DNA of 64,000 nt from an uncultured Chlamydiae bacterium (GCA_937996705.1 CALKUQ010000021.1:64527-128526), one strand, 5' to 3'. Counted from the first letter of the stretch, positions 5,983 to 54,635 are shown. The notes: a model not told the origin generated them from the letters alone. Numbers and translations are program-made.

Positions 5983-6456
5983 ATGAAAAAAATCACATCA
6001 TTTCTCTTTTTTCTAGTATTGACACTTTCCATTCAATGGATTGGGAGTCTCTTTACATTTACCTCAGTCAATAACTGGTATCAAACCCTGAAAAAACCGG
6101 CATGGAACCCTCCAGGCTGGGTTTTTGGCTTTGTCTGGCCCCTCCTCTACCTCATGATCGCAATTTCAGGCTGGCTCATTTTCATAAAAATAGAGCCTTC
6201 AAAGAAAAAAACTCTCGCCCTTTTTACCTATGGCGCGGGACTCCTCTTCAATCTAGCCTGGACCTACTCTTTCTTTTTCCTCAAAAGTCCAGTGCTTGCC
6301 CTAGCTGACCTCCTCATCCTCATCACACTCACCTCGATAAACACCCACCTCTTCCTAAAGCTCTACCGCCCTTCAGGCCTCCTCCTCATCCCCTACCTCC
6401 TCTGGTCCCTCTTCGCCCTCTCCCTCAACCTCGCCATCCTCCTCCTGAACCCCTAA
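5983..6456 (+). CDS. tspO: TspO/MBR family tryptophan-rich sensory protein
   Basis: 157 aa with 5 predicted TM helices. Motifs are WYQTLKKPAWNPPGWVFGFVWPLLY and a Trp/Tyr-rich core. It starts 3 nt after the DAHP synthase stop. Confidence 0.88.
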   Translation: MKKITSFLFFLVLTLSIQWIGSLFTFTSVNNWYQTLKKPAWNPPGWVFGFVWPLLYLMIAISGWLIFIKIEPSKKKTLALFTYGAGLLFNLAWTYSFFFLKSPVLALADLLILITLTSINTHLFLKLYRPSGLLLIPYLLWSLFALSLNLAILLLNP

Positions 6457-45775: not shown

Positions 45776-47926
45776 ATGCCCAGAAATATATTCTCTCACC
45801 CCTACGATCTTATCTCCCCTGATGGAAAAATCAAAAAGATCAACTCATTTAATAACAATGAATTAGAGTCGATTGTCGAAATTGAGAATATCTCCCCCTA
45901 TTTTAAAGGCTTTCAAATAGATCCCAAATTGGTCCAATTTAATATTAAAAGTACTTTTGCTCAACTCGGGATTGATGGGAGAGGATTAGATCTTGAGCTT
46001 TTCCCAAAACTATATAAAGCTCAGTTGCTTGTAAAATTAAAAGCGTTTAATCCTATTGGACAAAAACTCTTAAGTCTCATCACAGAAGGGGTCTTCCTAG
46101 GAAAATTATTCGCAGCAGATGACAGACGAAGAGTGAGACACGCAGATTATTTACATCGCCTTCTAGGCAAATCGGATGAAACCGGAAATCCTTTACTAGT
46201 TGTTAGCGAGGGTTATAAAACAGAAATCATCTTAGAGCAGCCCGAAAAAAACAGGACGATTGTGAAACTACCCTTAATTCCAGGGATTTGGGTTTATGAC
46301 GATGCAGTATACGGATTTTTAGAAACAATTATACGTGGGCTGAAGCAATCGGAGAGCCACTTCAGATCCTCCCTTTTTCTCCATCAAGTTAAAAAAGATT
46401 TTCCTGCAAAAATCCCTGAAGGTCAAATGCTTTTAGTTAAAACTATGAAAATGAGCATGCCTACCCTTTTTGCAAGAGTTGTTCATGAAGAGCTCCCCAA
46501 AGGCTATTTTCATGCTACCGCCGATATCATTGAACCTCAGAAGAAAACAGGGGATATTTTTGAATTTCATGGATCTAGCTCTGAAGAGATCACCCACATC
46601 CCTCTAGAATTTTATACTCTCGAATCGTACCGAGAACATTTTTTCTTTTCCGACAGAGACCTCTTGCACGAGTGCTTAAAAGAGCCCGAAAGTCTCTTTC
46701 GAGCTTTTGAGACAGCTCCCGATACTGAGGCTGCAGCTTTTATCGTTAAAGGAGAACATCTTGTAAAATTATCCACACCTGATTGGCTCTTATCAGATCT
46801 GCCTATTGAGGGGAATTTAGTGATCCCCCCTCTAGATCGAAAAGATCACGCAGTTTTAAATAATTTTATTAAGTCCCAAGCAATTTACACCATTGTTAAA
46901 GCGATGCAAGAGGGGGTTATTACCAGCCAAGGAATCATACTTTCCAAGTACCTACCTGCCCCCATATTAAAAAGTTTTCTACTGAATGAACGGGTAACAA
47001 GATGTTTGAAGGCGATTTACTTCAAAATCCCCTCCCTTCGCCATGGCGATTATTTTTCTCACGATGATCGGGTCTTATTACACGATCTTGCCAAAGCCTC
47101 CGTAGATGTCTTCTGGGTAGATTTTACCTCTCATCTTCTTCTTAAATACGTCCTTCGTTCCGATAAAGATTTTGGAATGTTTGTCCCAGTAGATAAGGTA
47201 AATGATTTTCAAAAAGCAACATTTTTTGGAATTTATGGCTCTAGGCTTGTAGATTCGGATTATCGAGAAGAATTTAAGGAGTGTTTTAAAGGGTTAATTC
47301 AAATGAAGAGCGAGCTAGATCATGAAAAACTCAATCCGGAGACTTCGATAGCTGTTAGTACAGGTGGAGGTCCAGGGGTTATGGCCATGGGAAATCAAAT
47401 TGCAAATGAGCTTGGCCTTCTCTCTTGTGGCCACGCGGTAAACTTTAAAAAACCTCATGAATTTGATGAAAAAGAAGAACCTATCAATCCCTTCATCCAA
47501 GCAAAAATGACCTATAGCCTTGAACAAATTATTGTACGTCAATCTGAGTTTGGTCTCGATTTCCCTATCTTTTGCCAGGGAGGTGTCGGAACAGATTTTG
47601 AACATGCTTTAGAACTTCTGAGAACTCAAGTTGGCAGCAGGCCGGCTGCCCCCATTCTCCTTTTTGGCCCCCCCGATTACTGGCGCTCTAAAATCACCCC
47701 CCTCTACCAGAGTAATCTCTCCATAGGCACGATTAAAGGGACAGAGTGGACTTCAAACACCTTTTTTTGTGTACAAACAAGCAAACAAGCGCTAGCCATC
47801 TACTATAAATATTTTACAAACAGACTTCCTATAGGCCCCAATTACCCACCTGCAAAAGATGGATTTGTTATCTCAGAGGGGGCCGATCTAACTCCTGACA
47901 CCTCCTCTCCCCCCTCCCCAATTTGA
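45776..47926 (+). CDS. 716-aa protein with a C-terminal LOG/PpnN-like (TIGR00730-type) nucleotide-binding Rossmann domain and a ~480-aa unknown N-terminal region
   Basis: LOG-family motifs are STGGGPGVMAMGN (GGGxGxM) and FCQGGVGTDFEHALELL (PGGxGTxxE). The segment between them, EEPINPFIQAKM...EQIIVRQSEF, parallels E. coli PpnN. Confidence 0.7.
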   Translation: MPRNIFSHPYDLISPDGKIKKINSFNNNELESIVEIENISPYFKGFQIDPKLVQFNIKSTFAQLGIDGRGLDLELFPKLYKAQLLVKLKAFNPIGQKLLSLITEGVFLGKLFAADDRRRVRHADYLHRLLGKSDETGNPLLVVSEGYKTEIILEQPEKNRTIVKLPLIPGIWVYDDAVYGFLETIIRGLKQSESHFRSSLFLHQVKKDFPAKIPEGQMLLVKTMKMSMPTLFARVVHEELPKGYFHATADIIEPQKKTGDIFEFHGSSSEEITHIPLEFYTLESYREHFFFSDRDLLHECLKEPESLFRAFETAPDTEAAAFIVKGEHLVKLSTPDWLLSDLPIEGNLVIPPLDRKDHAVLNNFIKSQAIYTIVKAMQEGVITSQGIILSKYLPAPILKSFLLNERVTRCLKAIYFKIPSLRHGDYFSHDDRVLLHDLAKASVDVFWVDFTSHLLLKYVLRSDKDFGMFVPVDKVNDFQKATFFGIYGSRLVDSDYREEFKECFKGLIQMKSELDHEKLNPETSIAVSTGGGPGVMAMGNQIANELGLLSCGHAVNFKKPHEFDEKEEPINPFIQAKMTYSLEQIIVRQSEFGLDFPIFCQGGVGTDFEHALELLRTQVGSRPAAPILLFGPPDYWRSKITPLYQSNLSIGTIKGTEWTSNTFFCVQTSKQALAIYYKYFTNRLPIGPNYPPAKDGFVISEGADLTPDTSSPPSPI

Positions 47927-47983
47927 CATAAATCATGCAATTTCACTATCATAGCTCCACCTAATCAAACAAAAGGTGAATAC

Positions 47984-48607
47984 ATGATAAAAACAATGAC
48001 AACACTACTTCTTCTTGCATCAGCAACTGTTTTTGCGGAAAGTGTAGCTCTTCCAGTTTCTAAAGAACTTATTCAAAATGCAGCACCTATAAATTCAAGA
48101 CAAGCAGAAGGGACCATCTACTTTAGAGCTGTAACAAGCTCAACTGCGCGAAGTGATATCGATGTTTTTCCAGGACTTGGTTTAGGTTACAGAAAATCAT
48201 TTGGCCATTCGGGACTAGATGTTTCTTTTAATTTTATTAAAGGGGCAGGTTGGGGAAATACCCAAAAACTAGAAGCGTGGACCGCTCCAAAAGTTACCTA
48301 CCTCTATTACATAAATGCAAATAGCCCCTCTAGCTTTTACGCTGGGACAGGCCTTGCATGGGGTGGCACCTCTTACAGAAAAACTGTAACAATTCTCGAA
48401 GAAGATGGTATTACACAAACTCTAAGTTATCAAACTTCAGCATTCAGAGGTCTTATTCCTAACATCGTTTTAGGTTATGAGTTCCTCCGCCATGAACTTG
48501 TAACTTCTTTCGTAGAACTCACAGCTAGCCAGCCAGTTATTCCAAGCTACTCAAGCGGATTACTCCCAAGACCTGCTTTGGAACTCTCTCTAGGCGCCGG
48601 CTTCTAA
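47984..48607 (+). CDS. Outer-membrane beta-barrel protein
   Basis: The signal peptide is MIKTMTTLLLLASATVFAES. It has alternating hydrophobic beta-strand patterns, aromatic girdle residues and a C-terminal ...LSLGAGF ending in Phe. Confidence 0.7.
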   Translation: MIKTMTTLLLLASATVFAESVALPVSKELIQNAAPINSRQAEGTIYFRAVTSSTARSDIDVFPGLGLGYRKSFGHSGLDVSFNFIKGAGWGNTQKLEAWTAPKVTYLYYINANSPSSFYAGTGLAWGGTSYRKTVTILEEDGITQTLSYQTSAFRGLIPNIVLGYEFLRHELVTSFVELTASQPVIPSYSSGLLPRPALELSLGAGF

Positions 48608-48634
48608 TCTAGGAATTACAAAAGTTTTCTTGAA

Positions 48635-48671
48635 ACCCTTGTGGATAAAATCGTGCACAAGGGTTTTTTTT
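48635..48671 (+). terminator. Rho-independent terminator
   Basis: A 9-bp stem ACCCTTGTG / CACAAGGGT with a 12-nt loop is followed by T8. Confidence 0.8.
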
Positions 48672-48735
48672 ACACCTAATAATTAGTCACTTGTGCTATA
48701 GTCTCTTCAATTAATTTTAAAGGAATTGAAATCCG

Positions 48736-49743
48736 ATGAAACCAGTAGCCTTACTCTTTACAGAAACTGCAGTCTTGTGGGAGTTATCTGGAGGAAAGCC
48801 AGATCGGAGAGAACCCTTTATTGGACTCCCTGACAAGAGAACCCGTGTAATTCAACAAAGTCAAAAAGGGCCCTTATGCGCCTATTACAGCATGTTACCC
48901 TTAAGAGTTCGAATAGGGCCTACTCACTCAAGCTCGTTTCAGACTTTCCGTTCGGATGAAAAAATAATTTCTATATGGCGTAAAGAATTGATTGCTATTA
49001 GTTCCAGGCGCTATCGACTTTTAATAAATTCTGAAGAGTACGAGGCCTGTATAAACACCTGTCATGAAAATCTATTACTTGCCTTTGGAATAAATTATAT
49101 TTATATGGCACTAGGTGACATTTCTATAAAAGGAATTCCTTCATGGAAAATTTGGCATTCTAGCGGTCCATTAACTAAGGAGAATTTATTAAGAATTGTA
49201 AAAAACTATTTTAACTCCTTACCCCTTAGAGATAGGCAGGCACTGATTCATAATTTTGTTATTCGAGTTTTAATAGAAAAATATCAATTAGAATATTCTA
49301 GTTGGACTCCCGAACAACCGATTGATAGTTTAATGAAGAATCTAAAAGAGCATGGTCCCATGACAGTTAGCGGCTATTTAGGTCCTGTATTTTACTTAGC
49401 TCCTCCCCGCCTCTCTGCGCGTAAAATTTCAGACCACTCCCTTCACTATTTCCCTAAAGGAACTCAGCGAAAGCCTGAATTTGGTGATTGTCACGCAATC
49501 ATCGTCATTGGTGCTGAAAAAATAGGTGATCAAGAATTGGTCTACTATAGCGATCCCCACGACATAAGTGACCCGATTTCAGGTAGAAAAATATATGCAC
49601 AATCTTATAACACGTTTGTATCAGCAATACACCAACCCCTTGCTATAAAGGCATGCTTACTCGATGGAGACTCCCTACGATATTTTTCTGATGTTTATGG
49701 TGTACACGCTCATCGATCCTTACAACCCAACTCCGATAGATAG
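48736..49743 (+). CDS. Hypothetical protein, candidate papain-like (clan CA) cysteine protease / effector
   Basis: The motifs occur in the order QSQKGPLC48AYYS, then GDCH253AIIVIGAE, then LVYYSD273PH. This mimics papain Q-x5-C, then HAVxxVGY, then xxxKNSW. Confidence 0.45.
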   Translation: MKPVALLFTETAVLWELSGGKPDRREPFIGLPDKRTRVIQQSQKGPLCAYYSMLPLRVRIGPTHSSSFQTFRSDEKIISIWRKELIAISSRRYRLLINSEEYEACINTCHENLLLAFGINYIYMALGDISIKGIPSWKIWHSSGPLTKENLLRIVKNYFNSLPLRDRQALIHNFVIRVLIEKYQLEYSSWTPEQPIDSLMKNLKEHGPMTVSGYLGPVFYLAPPRLSARKISDHSLHYFPKGTQRKPEFGDCHAIIVIGAEKIGDQELVYYSDPHDISDPISGRKIYAQSYNTFVSAIHQPLAIKACLLDGDSLRYFSDVYGVHAHRSLQPNSDR

Positions 49744-49825
49744 GGCTAATTTTCGAAACACGCCACCTTTAAATTTGGCGAGTGCTCGCTTGCCTAGCAT
49801 CCAACAGTAGTCGCACCGACGCAGG

Positions 49826-49892
49826 CTTCACCTAATTCAAATCTGGGTAGTACTCTTTGAAAAATTCCAATTTTTGAAACTCTCTTAGTATA
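49826..49892. repeat. Dispersed repeat, copy D (inverted relative to 52107-52175)
   Basis: The reverse complement tatactaagagagtttcaaaaattggaatttttcaaagagtactacccagatttgaattaggtg aligns to tatactgagagtgtttcaaaaattgaaattttccaaagagtagtctccagatttaaattacctg. Confidence 0.75.
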
Positions 49893-49959: not shown

Positions 49960-50033
49960 GGGGCAATAGCTCAGTTGGTTAGAGCGTCGGACTCATAATC
50001 CGCAGGTCCCAGGTTCAAGTCCTGGTTGCCCCA
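49960..50033 (+). tRNA. tRNA with CAT anticodon (elongator Met, or Ile2 if lysidine-modified)
   Basis: GGGGCAATAGCTCAGTTGGTTAGAGCGTCGGACTCATAATCCGCAGGTCCCAGGTTCAAGTCCTGGTTGCCCCA folds as a 74-nt cloverleaf. The paired G1-C72 argues against an initiator tRNA. No 3' CCA is encoded. Confidence 0.88.
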
Positions 50034-50407
50034 CTCGTATAATAAATTTCTATTTAGTTTAGACTCTTCTATTTTGCCCCTTTCCTTAAGTGGCTGCATA
50101 ACTTTGTCAGTCACCCGAGCCCGATCTGGTTATAGGAGGAGAATACAATACTACTTTTTGCGACAACAGGTATCGTCTCAATCTCCCCATCGGCTGGGAA
50201 TTAATCACTCTATTCGATGCAAACTTTCTAGGGGCTTTCTATACTACTCTTGGTAATTTTAATATGAGTGGATTAACCACAGGGCTCACCTTTGATTTTT
50301 AGCCCTAAAAAAATTAATAGTTAAATGCCTTGCTTTAATTATTTTATTAAGTCCTTTATAATAAATATTACGCATTGATAAATTTCTTTTTTATCGCTAA
50401 AATAGGT

Positions 50408-51073
50408 ATGAAATCAACACAGGGCTCTATTTTGGCAACACATCCACTAGCAACCTCCGACGAATTTAGGTGGGCTAATATTGCTGACCTTCTTGTCCAA
50501 TCTCTTCAATCTCCAAGTAGCCTCCTTTTTGCTATCTCAGCGGTTTTGGGTCAAAAATTATGTTATACCCCCCTTGCCTCGCCACTATTTTACCCTACCG
50601 CTATTGTTCACCATTTTGCAGGGGATAAGATACTCAAGTTACGCAGAATTGGATGGGTTTCTCCCGCTATCGGGATCTCTCTTGTAACCCTTATTGGTCG
50701 GGCTAGTTTTAATTTCATGCCTAATGCTTTATTAAAAGGAGTTATATACGGAGTCCATTCGTGCGCGATTGGCATGCTCACTAATATTTCGGCTGGCTAT
50801 TATTCTCAAATCATACCTCTTCGCAAAGTGCTACAAAGTTACGTCCCCCTTCCTTTTACTGTTGAAACCCTTTCTGGAAATGGGGTAAATACTATTTCGA
50901 AATGGAGCGAAATTTTCTCCAGCTTGGCATTTATTACAGCAAGCCTTGGGTTAAGTTTTTTTGGAGGGTTTCACGTGATTACAGCAAATGTGATTGGTCA
51001 TACAGCAGGAGCTGCTACTAAAGTAGTTTCTAGTCGTCTGCTTGCGATTTTTGCAGAAAAAAGAGCGGCTTGA
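50408..51073 (+). CDS. Hypothetical polytopic membrane protein
   Basis: I prefer the ATG at 50408 (MKSTQGS). It has several hydrophobic helices and no recognised domain. The 3' end overlaps the convergent YchJ-like gene by 44 nt. Confidence 0.5.
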   Translation: MKSTQGSILATHPLATSDEFRWANIADLLVQSLQSPSSLLFAISAVLGQKLCYTPLASPLFYPTAIVHHFAGDKILKLRRIGWVSPAIGISLVTLIGRASFNFMPNALLKGVIYGVHSCAIGMLTNISAGYYSQIIPLRKVLQSYVPLPFTVETLSGNGVNTISKWSEIFSSLAFITASLGLSFFGGFHVITANVIGHTAGAATKVVSSRLLAIFAEKRAA

Positions 51074-51437
51074 GATAACACCAGAAGCCTTCTGACTTTT
51101 CAAAGAGACTCTTTTCCCGAAAGCTCGTATCTTTACCAAAAGTCTTTAAAATAGCATAAAATGTAACGTGTCTATCGTCAAAAGATTCAATCTCAAGCCC
51201 TTGAAATTCTGTTGTGCTACTAAATTCGTGAATAGATGCAATCCAGGCTTCCAGATTTTTTTCATAGAGGGGGCTGTTTGGGTGGGTAGTTTTTATGATG
51301 TAATCTGGCAAATCTAGAGCGTAGGCGCTATAGCGAGATCGCATAAGCGCAAGGCAAGTTTCGGCGAGCTTCCTATTTTTGTGGTAGGGGCCACAGCAAT
51401 GCTCGTAAGTTTTTCCACTATGACAAGGACATTCCAT
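51030..51437 (-). CDS. YchJ/UPF0225 family protein (SEC-C metal-binding motif + NTF2-like domain)
   Basis: N-terminal CPCHSGKTYEHCCGPYH (SEC-C motif) followed by LMRSRYSAYAL, typical of YchJ. Confidence 0.8.
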   Translation of the reverse strand: MECPCHSGKTYEHCCGPYHKNRKLAETCLALMRSRYSAYALDLPDYIIKTTHPNSPLYEKNLEAWIASIHEFSSTTEFQGLEIESFDDRHVTFYAILKTFGKDTSFREKSLFEKSEGFWCYLKPLFFLQKSQADD

Positions 51438-52010: not shown

Positions 52011-52220
52011 GGTTTCAAACAGAGCCCTCTTCAGCGGACGGCTTTGCCAAATTAAACTAAGACGATTTTGCTGCGAAAAATCTAGGTAACATTCATTTGG
52101 AAGCGGTATATACTGAGAGTGTTTCAAAAATTGAAATTTTCCAAAGAGTAGTCTCCAGATTTAAATTACCTGAAGCCGATGGAGCGTAGCCCATAAAAAA
52201 CCCAATTTTTGAAACTCGAG
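52011..52220. repeat. Dispersed repeat, copy C (composite)
   Basis: 52078-52114 matches 61464-61500 at about 32 of 37 positions. 52107-52175 matches the reverse complement of 49826-49892. An internal near-palindromic motif gtttcaaaaattg / caatttttgaaac lies at about 52119-52136 and 52203-52220. Confidence 0.7.
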
Positions 52221-52396: not shown

Positions 52397-52987
52397 ATGT
52401 TTGCATATTTTTTTCATAAATTTATAAGAATATTACCTATTACATTCCTCTATTCTATTTTTGCACAGGAACTCATTGAAAAGGGAATTTGGAGTTATGG
52501 ACATCCAACAGTCTATTCCTGGGGGGAAGGGGCTCACTTAATCATCGGCAGATACTGCTCTATTGCTGATGATGTGCATGTTTTGCTAGGGGGAAATCAC
52601 AGAACAGATTGGGTCACTACCTTCCCCTTTTCTGAATTATGGCATGACCATGCTCGCTATCTAAACGGGCATCCTTCTTCCAATGGCGATGTAATCATCG
52701 GCAATGATGTATGGATTGGAAGAAGCGCAATGATTCTTTCTGGGGTAAAAATTGGAGATGGTGCAGTTATCGGAGCAAGAGCTGTAGTTACAAAAGACGT
52801 TCCTCCTTATGCTATTGTTGGAGGCAACCCTGCCCGTTTGATACGCTATCGATTTGATGAAGAAACGATTAGAAAGTTATTGGAAATCCAATGGTGGTTT
52901 TGGCCGGAAGAAAAAATTGCAAGAGCTCTTCCTCTAATGCTATCCGATAAAATCCAAGATTTTATTAAATTCGGAGAGGCAAATTAA
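52397..52987 (+). CDS. Hexapeptide-repeat xenobiotic acetyltransferase (XAT; Vat/CatB-like)
   Basis: Motifs are GGNHRTDWVTTFPF, VIIGNDVWIGRSAMILSGVKIGDGAVIGARAVVTKDVPPYAIVGGNPARLIRYRF and IQWWFWP, which is the characteristic Vat/CatB C-terminal motif. The N-terminus is hydrophobic. Confidence 0.85.
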   Translation: MFAYFFHKFIRILPITFLYSIFAQELIEKGIWSYGHPTVYSWGEGAHLIIGRYCSIADDVHVLLGGNHRTDWVTTFPFSELWHDHARYLNGHPSSNGDVIIGNDVWIGRSAMILSGVKIGDGAVIGARAVVTKDVPPYAIVGGNPARLIRYRFDEETIRKLLEIQWWFWPEEKIARALPLMLSDKIQDFIKFGEAN

Positions 52988-53797
52988 ATGCATATTTTTT
53001 TATTTTTAGCCCTAATTTATTCTTTTTTAGTTAATGCTTCTCAGCGCGAATCTGAGGATGTAAAAATTCTGGTTTTGGTGATTGCCTCAGATAATCTCCC
53101 TTGTTATATAGAAGAACAAAAAATTTGGAGTTCTTATATGAACTCTTTTCCTGAGAATGTAGAAAGCTATCTGATCAAAGCAGATCCTAGGTTAAAAAAG
53201 CCTGTTTTAATTAAAGGTGATGTCGTATGGTCTAAAACCGATGAGAGTCTAAGACCCGGCATCCTAAAAAAAACGATTCTCTCTTTGGAAGCCTTTTCCG
53301 ATCGTCTAGAACATGAATTTGATTATGTCCTTAGAGCAAACCTCTCTTCTTTTTTCATATTGCCACGTCTGATTGAATTCGCTAAAAATTTACCAAGAAC
53401 TAAATGTTACTCAGGACAAGTTTTCGCTTCAGAAACAGTTTGGCATGACCTCTCTTGGGTAGGTGGGCATGGTATTTTAATGTCTTCTGATCTTGCACTT
53501 GAACTCGTAAAACAAAAAAAATTCTTATTCAAATTTCCATCCGACCATAACGATGATATCGTTATTGCATTGTTTTTTAAAGATTTTTTAAATGTGGTTG
53601 CTCAAGAACATCCTTGTGCTTGGATAAGTTCTGCATCTGATTTTAAATCTAAAAAAGATCTTATTTCCAAACAGGATTTTTTCTTTAGACTGAAGAATCT
53701 CGGTTCAGATTCAATGCGCTCTACTGAAGAAGTTTACGTTCAAAAAGAGATGCGAAATATGTTTTATCCCCAACCAATTGGAGAAGCTCATGATTAA
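52988..53797 (+). CDS. Hypothetical type-II-anchored protein, Fringe/GT31-like putative glycosyltransferase
   Basis: ATG directly abuts the XAT stop. It has an N-terminal signal-anchor. The layout FDYVLRANLSSFFILPRLIEF ... GGHGILMSSDLALEL ... DDIVIALFF parallels GT31/Fringe blocks, but NLS occupies the expected DxD position. Confidence 0.4.
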   Translation: MHIFLFLALIYSFLVNASQRESEDVKILVLVIASDNLPCYIEEQKIWSSYMNSFPENVESYLIKADPRLKKPVLIKGDVVWSKTDESLRPGILKKTILSLEAFSDRLEHEFDYVLRANLSSFFILPRLIEFAKNLPRTKCYSGQVFASETVWHDLSWVGGHGILMSSDLALELVKQKKFLFKFPSDHNDDIVIALFFKDFLNVVAQEHPCAWISSASDFKSKKDLISKQDFFFRLKNLGSDSMRSTEEVYVQKEMRNMFYPQPIGEAHD

Positions 53798-54635
53798 TAA
53801 ATTTAAAAAATTATTATTATTAATCCTTATAATGTTAAGTTCCGCTCAGGGGGCTATCTATGACTGTTTTCCTTTTTTTAATGAATTAGAATTGTTGGAA
53901 ATCCGGCTTAATGAATTGTATGACCACGTAGATAAATTTGTTATTGTAGAAGCAACTACGACATTTAGAGGAGACCGTAAGCCCTTATATTTTAAAAAAA
54001 ACAAACATTTATTCGAAAAATTTAATGATAAAATTATCCATATAGTTGTTTCAGATCGCCCCTATCAAGATTGCTGGCAAGCAGATTTTTATCAGAGAGA
54101 TCAAATTATAAGGGGTTTAATTGACTGTCAACCAGACGATATCATCATTATTTCTGATGCAGATGAGATTGTTCGGCCTAGTACCATTCAAAAGATTGTA
54201 GATGAGCTACAAAATAAAAAGGTGCCTGCTGTGAAATGTCCTCTAGAATACTATTTCTATTTTTTTAACACCTGGTACAACAGACCTGGCAACGAAAATA
54301 ATACTGTAGCTACAACATATCGATACCTACGCACAACAAGTCCCAATCAAATAAGATGGGCGCAAAGGAGAAACGATCTTGGATTTTCTATTATCCCAAA
54401 TGCAGGTTGGCATTTTAGTTATATGGGTGGAATAGAAAGGGTTGCTTACAAAAAATCCTCTTTTGCCCACAGTGAATTTGACTATCCCGAATACAAGTCA
54501 TGGAATTATATCATCAATGACTTGAGAATAAATGGTAAAATTGTCGTGATAGATGAGACTTTCCCGAAATCAATCCTAGCAAATCTTGAACGTTACAAAG
54601 AAGCAGGATTCATCTATTTGGAAAACAGCTTTTAA
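53790..54635 (+). CDS. Glycosyltransferase family 17 (GnT-III / beta-1,4-mannosyl-glycoprotein GlcNAc-transferase-like)
   Basis: The canonical GT17 N-terminal block is YDCFPFFNELELLEIRLNELYDHVDKFVIVEATTTFRGDRKPLYF. ATG 53790 overlaps the upstream stop (ATGATTAA). An N-terminal hydrophobic anchor is present. Confidence 0.85.
   Translation: MINKFKKLLLLILIMLSSAQGAIYDCFPFFNELELLEIRLNELYDHVDKFVIVEATTTFRGDRKPLYFKKNKHLFEKFNDKIIHIVVSDRPYQDCWQADFYQRDQIIRGLIDCQPDDIIIISDADEIVRPSTIQKIVDELQNKKVPAVKCPLEYYFYFFNTWYNRPGNENNTVATTYRYLRTTSPNQIRWAQRRNDLGFSIIPNAGWHFSYMGGIERVAYKKSSFAHSEFDYPEYKSWNYIINDLRINGKIVVIDETFPKSILANLERYKEAGFIYLENSF

Follow-up and report, generated by a model that had tools for sequence, protein, structure and literature searches.

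A chlamydial operon encoding a CatB-related acetyltransferase and two GT-A glycosyltransferases with signal-like N-termini

A stretch of 64,000 nucleotides from an uncultured Chlamydiae bacterium (GCA_937996705.1, CALKUQ010000021.1:64527-128526), hereafter called the window, carries three closely packed genes on its plus strand at positions 52397-54635, counted from its first letter. Their predicted products are a hexapeptide acetyltransferase of the XAT class and two glycosyltransferases (GTs) of GT-A type, and all three begin with a short hydrophobic segment that resembles a signal peptide. The operon is considered here as a candidate set of exported, glycan-modifying enzymes.

Three genes and their products

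The genes, with their predicted products, and the Shine-Dalgarno-like sites between them are as follows (aa, amino acids; nt, nucleotides).

52397-52987, plus strand: gene 1, 196 aa, CatB-related (XAT-class) hexapeptide O-acetyltransferase
52973-52979, plus strand: Shine-Dalgarno-like GGAGAGG for gene 2, within the end of gene 1 and 8 nt before ATG 52988
52988-53797, plus strand: gene 2, 269 aa, DxD-less GT31/Fringe-like GT-A glycosyltransferase
53780-53783, plus strand: Shine-Dalgarno-like GGAG for gene 3, within the end of gene 2 and 6 nt before ATG 53790
53790-54635, plus strand: gene 3, 281 aa from ATG, GT17-family GT-A glycosyltransferase

A first-pass annotation, made from the sequence alone, had described a tightly coupled three-gene arrangement, and the same-strand order and the junctions confirm it. 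The TAA of gene 1 (52985-52987) abuts the ATG of gene 2 at 52988, leaving a spacer of 0 nt. Gene 3 overlaps gene 2 by 8 nt (spacer -8) if its start is ATG 53790, the octamer ATGATTAA at 53790-53797 then holding both the gene 3 ATG and the gene 2 TAA. No terminator-like sites were found on the plus strand within 52397-54635 by a consensus scan. The three genes appear to be translationally coupled and are probably co-transcribed as one operon. Hidden Markov model E-values of 1e-30 to 1e-49 and AlphaFold pLDDT values of 92-93 mark them as real genes. The start of gene 3 differs between public assemblies of the genome, which give either 281 aa from ATG 53790 or 267 aa from ATG 53832, and the open reading frame (ORF) is also open from TTG 53778 (285 aa). 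The long form from ATG 53790 is favoured, because GGAG precedes this codon, no Shine-Dalgarno-like site lies before ATG 53832, and the homologues possess equivalent hydrophobic N-termini.

The residues on which the assignment of the three products turns are encoded at the following positions.

52598-52600, plus strand: codon of gene 1 His68 in the motif GGNHRTDW, at the position of the XAT catalytic histidine
53333-53350, plus strand: gene 2 R116-A-N118-L-S120-S121, at the position of the GT31 DxD motif 'K-A-D-D-D-S'
53552-53557, plus strand: gene 2 D189-D190, equivalent to the GT31 (E/D)D catalytic-base motif and aligned with DD/ED of B3GLCT, B3GalT5 and B3GalT6
54156-54167, plus strand: gene 3 D123-A-D125-E126 (DxD motif)

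Gene 1 had been placed in the Vat/CatB class of hexapeptide acetyltransferases, and this placement is upheld by matches in the Protein Data Bank (PDB) and NCBIfam as well as by the retained catalytic histidine. The hexapeptide left-handed beta-helix is recognized by Pfam (Hexapep PF00132, 1.8e-11; PF14602, 1.9e-6), and the PDB matches span residues 47-192, including the C-terminal domain (CatB 6mfk, 5.5e-46; PaXAT 1xat, 3.8e-40; VatD, 4.5e-38). The histidine of the HRxDW motif is catalytic in XAT enzymes; GGNHRTDW of gene 1 aligns with AGNqgHRYDW and with HRYDW/HQHDW of CatB structures, and H68, D71 and W72 are invariant in 14 gene 1 homologues. The protein is about 60% identical to members of a very large family, spread across many phyla, that carries the NCBI name 'CatB-related O-acetyltransferase'. 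Its best NCBIfam models are CatB (166.8 bits, equivalog cut-off 350) and Vat (160.4 bits, cut-off 300), both below threshold, followed by weaker matches to WbbJ, WcaF and NeuD-type sugar acetyltransferases. Because these scores fall far below the CatB and Vat equivalog cut-offs, gene 1 is assigned to the XAT class and is not demonstrably a resistance enzyme.

The gene 2 protein itself has no match by sequence in Pfam (E ≤ 0.1), NCBIfam or the PDB, and its assignment rests on homologues, a family profile and a structure model. A word-indexed search gave 24 homologues, 16 of which match PF01762 at E ≤ 0.1 (best 2.5e-8) and four of which match Fringe. An exhaustive profile search extended the family to 503 representatives of 50%-identity clusters at E ≤ 1e-30, and to 2441 at E ≤ 1e-10. 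The AlphaFold 2 model, built on the alignment, reaches a pLDDT of 92.8. Its top 19 Foldseek matches in the PDB are all GT31 enzymes or GT31-type domains (E 1.3e-9 to 5.5e-6, TM 0.52-0.61), the best being B3GNT2 (1.3e-9), B3GalT5, B3GalT6, the GT31-type domains of chondroitin synthase (CHSY), Manic Fringe and C1GalT1. BoGT6a is among the weaker fold matches, and the best viral structural matches include a Pithovirus protein with 24% identity. When the family profile was compared with the PDB, B3GLCT, B3GalT5 and B3GalT6 were recovered weakly (E 0.03-0.06).

The earlier description of gene 2 as Fringe/GT31-like therefore holds for the fold and the homologues, which are nearest to GT31 and Fringe, but not for the DxD motif, which is replaced by N-L-S. 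In the profile alignment, FDYVLRtNLSSfY of the gene 2 family stands opposite FEFVLKADDDSF of B3GalT6 (FEFVLK-A-D-D-D-S-F). At the GT31 DDD columns, among 151 rows with a residue there, R116 is conserved in 150, N118 in 138 and S120 in 149, and an Asp at position 118 occurs in three rows only, so that the GT31 DxD is missing. Other elements are kept: D189 in 139 and D190 in all of 143 aligned representatives, the glycine loop G160 in 147 of 147, and K26, K95, R116 and R234 throughout the family. Because N-L-S takes the place of the DDD metal-binding motif, the family is best described as DxD-less and GT31-like and not as canonical GT31, one defining family feature being absent. Loss of DxD together with metal dependence has occurred independently in GT14 and prokaryotic GT6 with activity retained, and within GT31 itself COSMC, devoid of DxD as well as xED, turned into a chaperone (PMC7185993). 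Since xED and the four basic residues are kept, and GT14 and prokaryotic GT6 have lost DxD too, we infer that gene 2 encodes an active, probably metal-independent, inverting enzyme.

Gene 3 was regarded from the outset as an unambiguous GT17, and the match to PF04724 bears this out (E 3.9e-30, 105.5 bits against a gathering score of 26, residues 22-229). Its catalytic DxDE is intact, and D123, D125 and E126 are invariant across 30 aligned GT17 homologues. A DxD motif has been reported for GnT-III (PMC7014118). The AlphaFold 2 model (pLDDT 92.3) has a GT-A fold, with Foldseek matches to PcManGT, K4CP and GalNAc-T2 of other families at TM of about 0.45. No GT17 relative was found in the PDB by sequence, where only chance matches to Cry4Ba appeared, and the fold search gave generic GT-A enzymes only. 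The label 'eukaryote-type', which the first-pass annotation gave to this protein, overstates its rarity, because the short type is abundant: 3481 homologues were found at E ≤ 0.001, several copies occur on single chlamydial contigs, and GT17 homologues sharing about 40% identity with gene 3 are encoded on at least 579 viral contigs, some of them from giant-virus MAGs (metagenome-assembled genomes). GT17 includes uncharacterised bacterial proteins, and no bacterial MGAT equivalent is known (PMC4202792). One 48%-identical GT17 gene (on the contig of P0030, JGI 3300059473) lies directly after the type 3 secretion genes cdsU-cdsV-copN-scc and malQ and is followed by two GT2 genes.

Signal-like N-termini in three unrelated families

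The N-terminal segments of the three proteins are encoded as follows.

52397-52465, plus strand: gene 1, MFAYFFHKFIR-ILPITFLYSIFA and then QE; a 12-aa hydrophobic core after two basic residues
52988-53038, plus strand: gene 2, MH-IFLFLALIYSFLV-NA and then SQ; a 13-aa hydrophobic core
53790-53855, plus strand: gene 3, MINKFKK-LLLLILIMLSS-AQG and then A; three basic residues and a hydrophobic core

The hydrophobic cores of all three proteins are 9-13 aa long, small residues can be read from the sequences at -3/-1, and basic residues precede the core in genes 1 and 3 only. The conserved catalytic domains begin within a few residues of the core, with no stem region; in the gene 2 model, a helix spans residues 2-20 and the domain opens with a strand at residue 27. 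Reading of the gene 1 sequence revealed no other in-frame ATG, GTG or TTG before its conserved domain. The gene 2 segment is taken to be translated as well, because no further in-frame Met occurs until residue 51, which already belongs to the conserved domain.

Golgi type II enzymes consist of a short cytoplasmic tail, one membrane span, an extended stem and a catalytic domain. Both glycosyltransferases had been likened to them, on the strength of a short basic stretch followed by one hydrophobic helix. The helix is present in both, but gene 2 (MH-IFLFLALIYSFLV) has no basic stretch, and the likeness to Golgi enzymes fails on the cores of 9-13 aa, on the domains that start 3-8 residues further on and on the missing stem. 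In addition, gene 1, for which no such feature had been noted, also possesses a hydrophobic N-terminus. For comparison, the proline-rich stem of GnT-III occupies residues 35-86 (PMC7014118). The geometry of the three N-termini appears to fit Sec signal peptides better than a Golgi type II anchor. As a control, the hydrophobic-core heuristic was applied across the window, where it flagged 15 of 50 ORFs but passed over RpoB/C, EF-Tu and the ribosomal proteins.

The segments recur in close homologues. Among GT17 proteins, 103 of 115 close homologues carry one, ending near residue 19 and separated by 3-8 aa from the conserved KIYDCF, and the named proteins in this set come from Chlamydiae or from MAGs of the Planctomycetes-Verrucomicrobia-Chlamydiae (PVC) group. 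The nearest XAT homologues, including named Rhabdochlamydiaceae and Chlamydiales proteins, likewise have a hydrophobic leader, whereas named homologues from Desulfobacteraceae, Herpetosiphon and Planctomycetes show basic, non-hydrophobic N-termini. The 77%-identical homologue of gene 1 is annotated short, and an upstream in-frame Met adds the hydrophobic leader to it. Close gene 2 homologues carry the segment in 17 of 23 cases. Hydrophobic starts were also found in those examined among the glycosyltransferases that lie beside or are fused to gene 2 homologues in chlamydial loci (GT47/RXYLT1-like, GT2, GT2+TPR and GT4). Three unrelated enzyme families thus share the same type of leader in the chlamydial lineage.

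Viral GT17 homologues (loci L041-L120) carry the segment in only one of 59 cases with a readable start. Most of them begin with MKIYD and are leaderless, and several are C-terminal fusions behind a GT2 domain, the ORFs of such fusions reaching 400-1200 codons upstream of the GT17 domain.

Distribution and chromosomal setting

A scan of the genome collection gave 34 loci with gene 2 homologues. Those with a name are mainly Chlamydiota MAGs, together with several Verrucomicrobia and one Babeliales, and a number are labelled only 'uncultured bacterium'. In none of the 34 loci does an XAT gene adjoin the gene 2 homologue; a GT17 gene adjoins it in one (L033) and lies 5.7 kb off in one more (L011). 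The closest homologue of gene 1 (77% identity) has no glycosyltransferase neighbours. No partner of gene 2 homologues recurs in more than six of the 34 loci, and no function-informative partner was found there beyond other glycosyltransferases. The adjacent or fused partners comprise GT47/RXYLT1-like, GT2+TPR, GT2, GT4, Anp1/GT62 and GT10 fucosyltransferase proteins and a methyltransferase. Hence the triad of genes is not conserved elsewhere and is lineage-specific. The first-pass annotation knew of no described chlamydial pathway of this composition, and the searchable literature agrees: no chlamydial GT17 or GT31, and no such pathway, was found described in it.

Two observations on gene 2 relatives may be added. 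In other genomes, family members are fused to GT4, Anp1 (GT62), GT10 fucosyltransferase, TPR and methyltransferase domains (L012 4927-6750; P0278, P0345, P0289, P0014). In a Candidatus Babeliales MAG (L008, CAVUQO010000003.1), a 41%-identical gene 2 homologue lies beside a GT47/RXYLT1-like protein, a pairing that may reflect exchange of genes between bacteria living with amoebae.

Other genes of the window include rpoB/rpoC, tuf, the L11-L1-L10-L7/L12 cluster and nusG, and the encoded RpoC shares a 90%-identity cluster with the 'Chlamydiae bacterium' MAG protein MBM3193330.1. Because of these genes and the clustering of RpoC, the operon is placed on the chromosome of an uncultured Chlamydiota bacterium, in line with the chlamydial host assumed earlier. 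On the 3' side it is followed by a convergent block of a photolyase-related gene (DPRP), SDR, DUF1295 and DUF2177. The operon ends exactly at a synteny breakpoint, at about 54707 of the window, defined by the closest available relatives (loci L122 and L124). In these relatives, the photolyase-related protein is 82% identical and the DPRP-SDR-DUF1295-DUF2177 block shows 74-87% amino-acid identity, and none of the three operon genes occurs within 10 kb of the conserved flank. Unrelated ORFs stand at the breakpoint instead, and none of them matches any part of the window.

Upstream of the operon lies one further feature to which it had been linked:

49960-50034: tRNA-Met, 2.4 kb upstream of the operon

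The operon had been said to lie directly downstream of this tRNA, in a position consistent with horizontal acquisition, but two ORFs intervene over the 2.4 kb. Evidence for recent transfer is weak. No other ORF of the window is as low in GC as genes 2 and 3 (0.343 and 0.336; z -2.2 and -2.5), whereas their GC at third codon positions (GC3) and their codon-usage distance are ordinary; a check of composition across the operon thus found deviation in GC only. There is no integrase domain near the operon, in that the neighbouring genes have no Pfam match on record, and no att-like direct repeat was found flanking it, the upstream repeats belonging to two short inverted-repeat families. A tRNA-linked island was considered and rejected as unsupported, given the ordinary GC3 and codon usage, the absence of an integrase domain and the distance of the tRNA. 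The operon is an accessory, lineage-specific arrangement at the synteny breakpoint, not demonstrably a recent tRNA-linked island.

Several other elements of the window were recorded. A 69-nt inverted repeat (49824-49892 and 52109-52177, 86% complementary), the right arm of which ends about 220 nt before the operon, brackets tRNA-Met, ORF 50375-51073 and a YchJ-like gene at 51030-51437; the bracketed segment could be invertible or formerly mobile. A second, unrelated intergenic family (40159-40348 and 61320-61497) forms a 72-nt inverted pair, 21 kb apart and 90% complementary, and has in addition a near-perfect 41-nt hairpin at 40229-40348, giving it the look of a miniature inverted-repeat transposable element (MITE). 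Within the 1093-aa ORF 36794-40075 on the minus strand, a 90-nt periodic direct repeat (38966-39463, five copies, 61-73% identical) is present, and the encoded protein should therefore have 30-residue repeats. Upstream of the tRNA, three consecutive plus-strand ORFs (716, 207 and 335 aa) without a Pfam match on record occupy 45776-49743; they are possibly accessory or effector-like, and one of them, ORF 47984-48607, has a signal-like N-terminus. The 157-aa ORF 5983-6456 is a compositional outlier (GC3 0.61, z 4.2; codon-usage distance z 3.6), far more deviant than the operon, and has a strongly hydrophobic N-terminus.

Proposed role and comparison with known systems

In bacteria, nucleotide-sugar glycosyltransferases and acetyl-CoA acetyltransferases are normally cytoplasmic. 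The leaders described above tentatively suggest that the operon may instead encode a lineage-specific set of three exported glycan-modifying enzymes that act outside the cytoplasm, a reading that is plausible and falls somewhat short of probable. The three genes would be co-expressed from one operon, and their products would leave the cytoplasm by the Sec pathway, reaching the periplasm and possibly also the inclusion lumen or membranes of the host. At that site, the enzymes would act in sequence on one acceptor glycan, with two inverting sugar transfers and one O-acetylation. Gene 2 would work with no metal at its active site, conserved Lys and Arg standing in the metal's place. Because nucleotide sugars and acetyl-CoA are cytoplasmic metabolites, both kinds of donor would have to be host-derived. 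Retention of the catalytic residues (His68 in gene 1, DD189/190 and the G-loop in gene 2, D123xD125E in gene 3) was counted in support of this reading, as was the occurrence of gene 2 homologues as scattered singletons without a conserved biosynthetic cluster. A precedent for extracytoplasmic enzymes on host donors exists in the luminal glycogen synthesis of C. trachomatis, a bacterium that secretes its enzymes for making glycogen into the lumen of the inclusion and draws on host UDP-glucose taken in through SLC35D2 (PMC4829429). Export, donors, acceptor and order of steps are all presumed in this scheme.

Several points weigh against export. The 267-aa call of gene 3 (ATG 53832) would remove both the overlap with gene 2 and the hydrophobic N-terminus, the hydrophobic-core heuristic is crude, and the contrast between chlamydial and non-chlamydial N-termini draws on a few named sequences and the viral set, most homologues being unlabelled. 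Exit from the periplasm, by type 2 secretion or another route, is a presumption only. We know of no supply of acetyl-CoA or nucleotide sugars in the periplasm or inclusion of this organism. Moreover, an acetyltransferase with two glycosyltransferases is a classic cytoplasmic module for surface polysaccharides.

This last point leads to the best-surviving alternative, which is possible though on the less probable side: a surface-glycan module at the cytoplasmic face, in which uncleaved N-terminal anchors would hold the domains inside while a lipid-linked oligosaccharide is extended and O-acetylated and later flipped. Its product could be a lipooligosaccharide (LOS) outer core, an O-antigen-like chain or a glycoprotein glycan. 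Polysaccharide loci typically combine such genes in one operon, the cytoplasm is where nucleotide sugars and acetyl-CoA are at hand, the weaker gene 1 matches are to sugar acetyltransferases (WbbJ, WcaF, NeuD-type), and two GT2 genes cluster with a GT17 homologue on another chlamydial contig. The N-termini themselves argue the other way, since in genes 1 and 3 the basic residues before and the acidic ones after the core would, by the positive-inside rule, place the domain outside, and 9-13 aa is a short length for a transmembrane core. In addition, no flippase, polymerase, ligase, initiating transferase or sugar-nucleotide gene lies nearby, the triad is unconserved, and gene 2 homologues have no recurrent biosynthetic partner. 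The named non-chlamydial bacterial relatives and the viral ones lack the N-terminal segment.

A broader form of the export proposal would extend it beyond this operon. Environmental chlamydiae, and perhaps Babeliales, might export a variable toolkit of Golgi-type GT-A enzymes and a CatB-related acetyltransferase by Sec-type signals, with GT17, DxD-less GT31-like, GT47/RXYLT1-like, GT10, GT62 and GT2 proteins among its contents and the present operon as one cassette. Host nucleotide sugars and acetyl-CoA would be used in the periplasm or inclusion lumen for Golgi-like glycan building or for remodelling of host glycans. In this full extent the proposal is speculative and rather unlikely.

It is improbable that the three genes are functionally unrelated neighbours, gene 1 being an acetyltransferase for xenobiotics or antibiotics (chloramphenicol/streptogramin-type) that simply happens to be on one transcript with the two glycosyltransferases. 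CatB and Vat are its best named matches, but at 167 versus 350 bits and 160 versus 300, and the NCBI name says only 'CatB-related'. The absence of glycosyltransferases beside its closest homologue (77%) and of XAT genes beside gene 2 homologues (0 of 34 other loci) would suit independent functions; against this, the abutting stop and start codons and the Shine-Dalgarno site inside gene 1 point to coupled expression, and a signal-like N-terminus is unsuited to drug inactivation in the cytoplasm. An antibiotic-resistance role for gene 1 was judged unlikely on the sub-threshold CatB/Vat scores and this N-terminus. Very improbable, finally, is that gene 2 encodes a catalytically dead, Cosmc-like pseudoenzyme serving as chaperone or scaffold for the GT17 enzyme translated next. 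In its favour are the loss of DxD in the gene 2 family, the precedent of COSMC, a motif-less GT31 turned chaperone (PMC7185993), and the 8-nt overlap of genes 2 and 3. The role is judged unlikely since the catalytic-base motif survives: COSMC has neither DxD nor xED any longer, but the gene 2 family retains DD (143/143), the G-loop, K26, K95, R116 and R234, has GT17 adjacent to one of 34 homologues and 5.7 kb from one more, and includes fusions to other catalytic glycosyltransferase domains that suggest an enzyme.

The enzymes are of known kinds. What is new is the DxD-less GT31-like family, a small bacterial GT17 with an export-type leader, and the coupling of both to a leader-bearing XAT. 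The gene 2 family, in which R-T-N-L-S-S replaces DxD, is a sizeable uncharacterised group of about 500 representatives (50%-identity clusters, E ≤ 1e-30) and a candidate for independent loss of metal dependence among GT-A enzymes. Gene 3 offers a tractable small representative of bacterial GT17, a group without known activity. If three unrelated families in one operon have indeed gained export signals, glycans would be synthesized or remodelled in the periplasm, inclusion lumen or host membranes, an extension of the one precedent, C. trachomatis with its luminal glycogen synthesis. Such extracytoplasmic glycosylation would be surprising, and the case for it is drawn from N-terminal sequence features. 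If the segments serve as membrane anchors only, the operon would be an ordinary lineage-specific surface-glycan module.

Among known systems, gene 3 resembles GnT-III/MGAT3 (GT17, PF04724) in its family match, its DxD(E) and a hydrophobic N-terminal segment followed by a GT-A domain. It differs in being half the size (281 aa), in having no proline-rich stem and in starting its domain 3-8 residues after the core; it is also a bacterial protein, chlamydial genomes hold several copies, and viral proteins with about 40% identity to it are abundant. The sole characterised GT17 activity is beta-1,4-GlcNAc transfer to the core beta-mannose of N-glycans, and an animal N-glycan is an unlikely acceptor for gene 3. 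Gene 2 shares the fold, the G-loop and the (E/D)D catalytic-base motif with GT31 enzymes (B3GNT2, B3GalT5/6, C1GalT1, Fringe; PF01762/PF02434), from which it is set apart by N-L-S with a preceding Arg in place of DDD, by identity of about 14% and by the lack of a stem. GT14 C2GnT and prokaryotic GT6 (BoGT6a) are, like gene 2, GT-A enzymes without DxD, and GT14 binds its donor via basic side chains (PMC7185993); unlike gene 2, they belong to other families and clades, and metal independence of gene 2 is a prediction.

Gene 1 has the left-handed beta-helix and C-terminal domain of PaXAT, CatB and VatA/D over residues 47-192, together with the HRxDW motif, but it scores below the cut-offs for resistance enzymes and carries a hydrophobic N-terminal extension that is missing in named non-chlamydial members. 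As for the proposed site of action, the closest counterpart is the luminal glycogen system of C. trachomatis (GlgA and others), in which chlamydial glycosyltransferases work outside the bacterium on host UDP-sugar (PMC4829429). Those enzymes belong to GT-B and glycoside hydrolase (GH) families, leave the cell by type 3 secretion and make glycogen, whereas the signals encoded in the operon are Sec-type by look.

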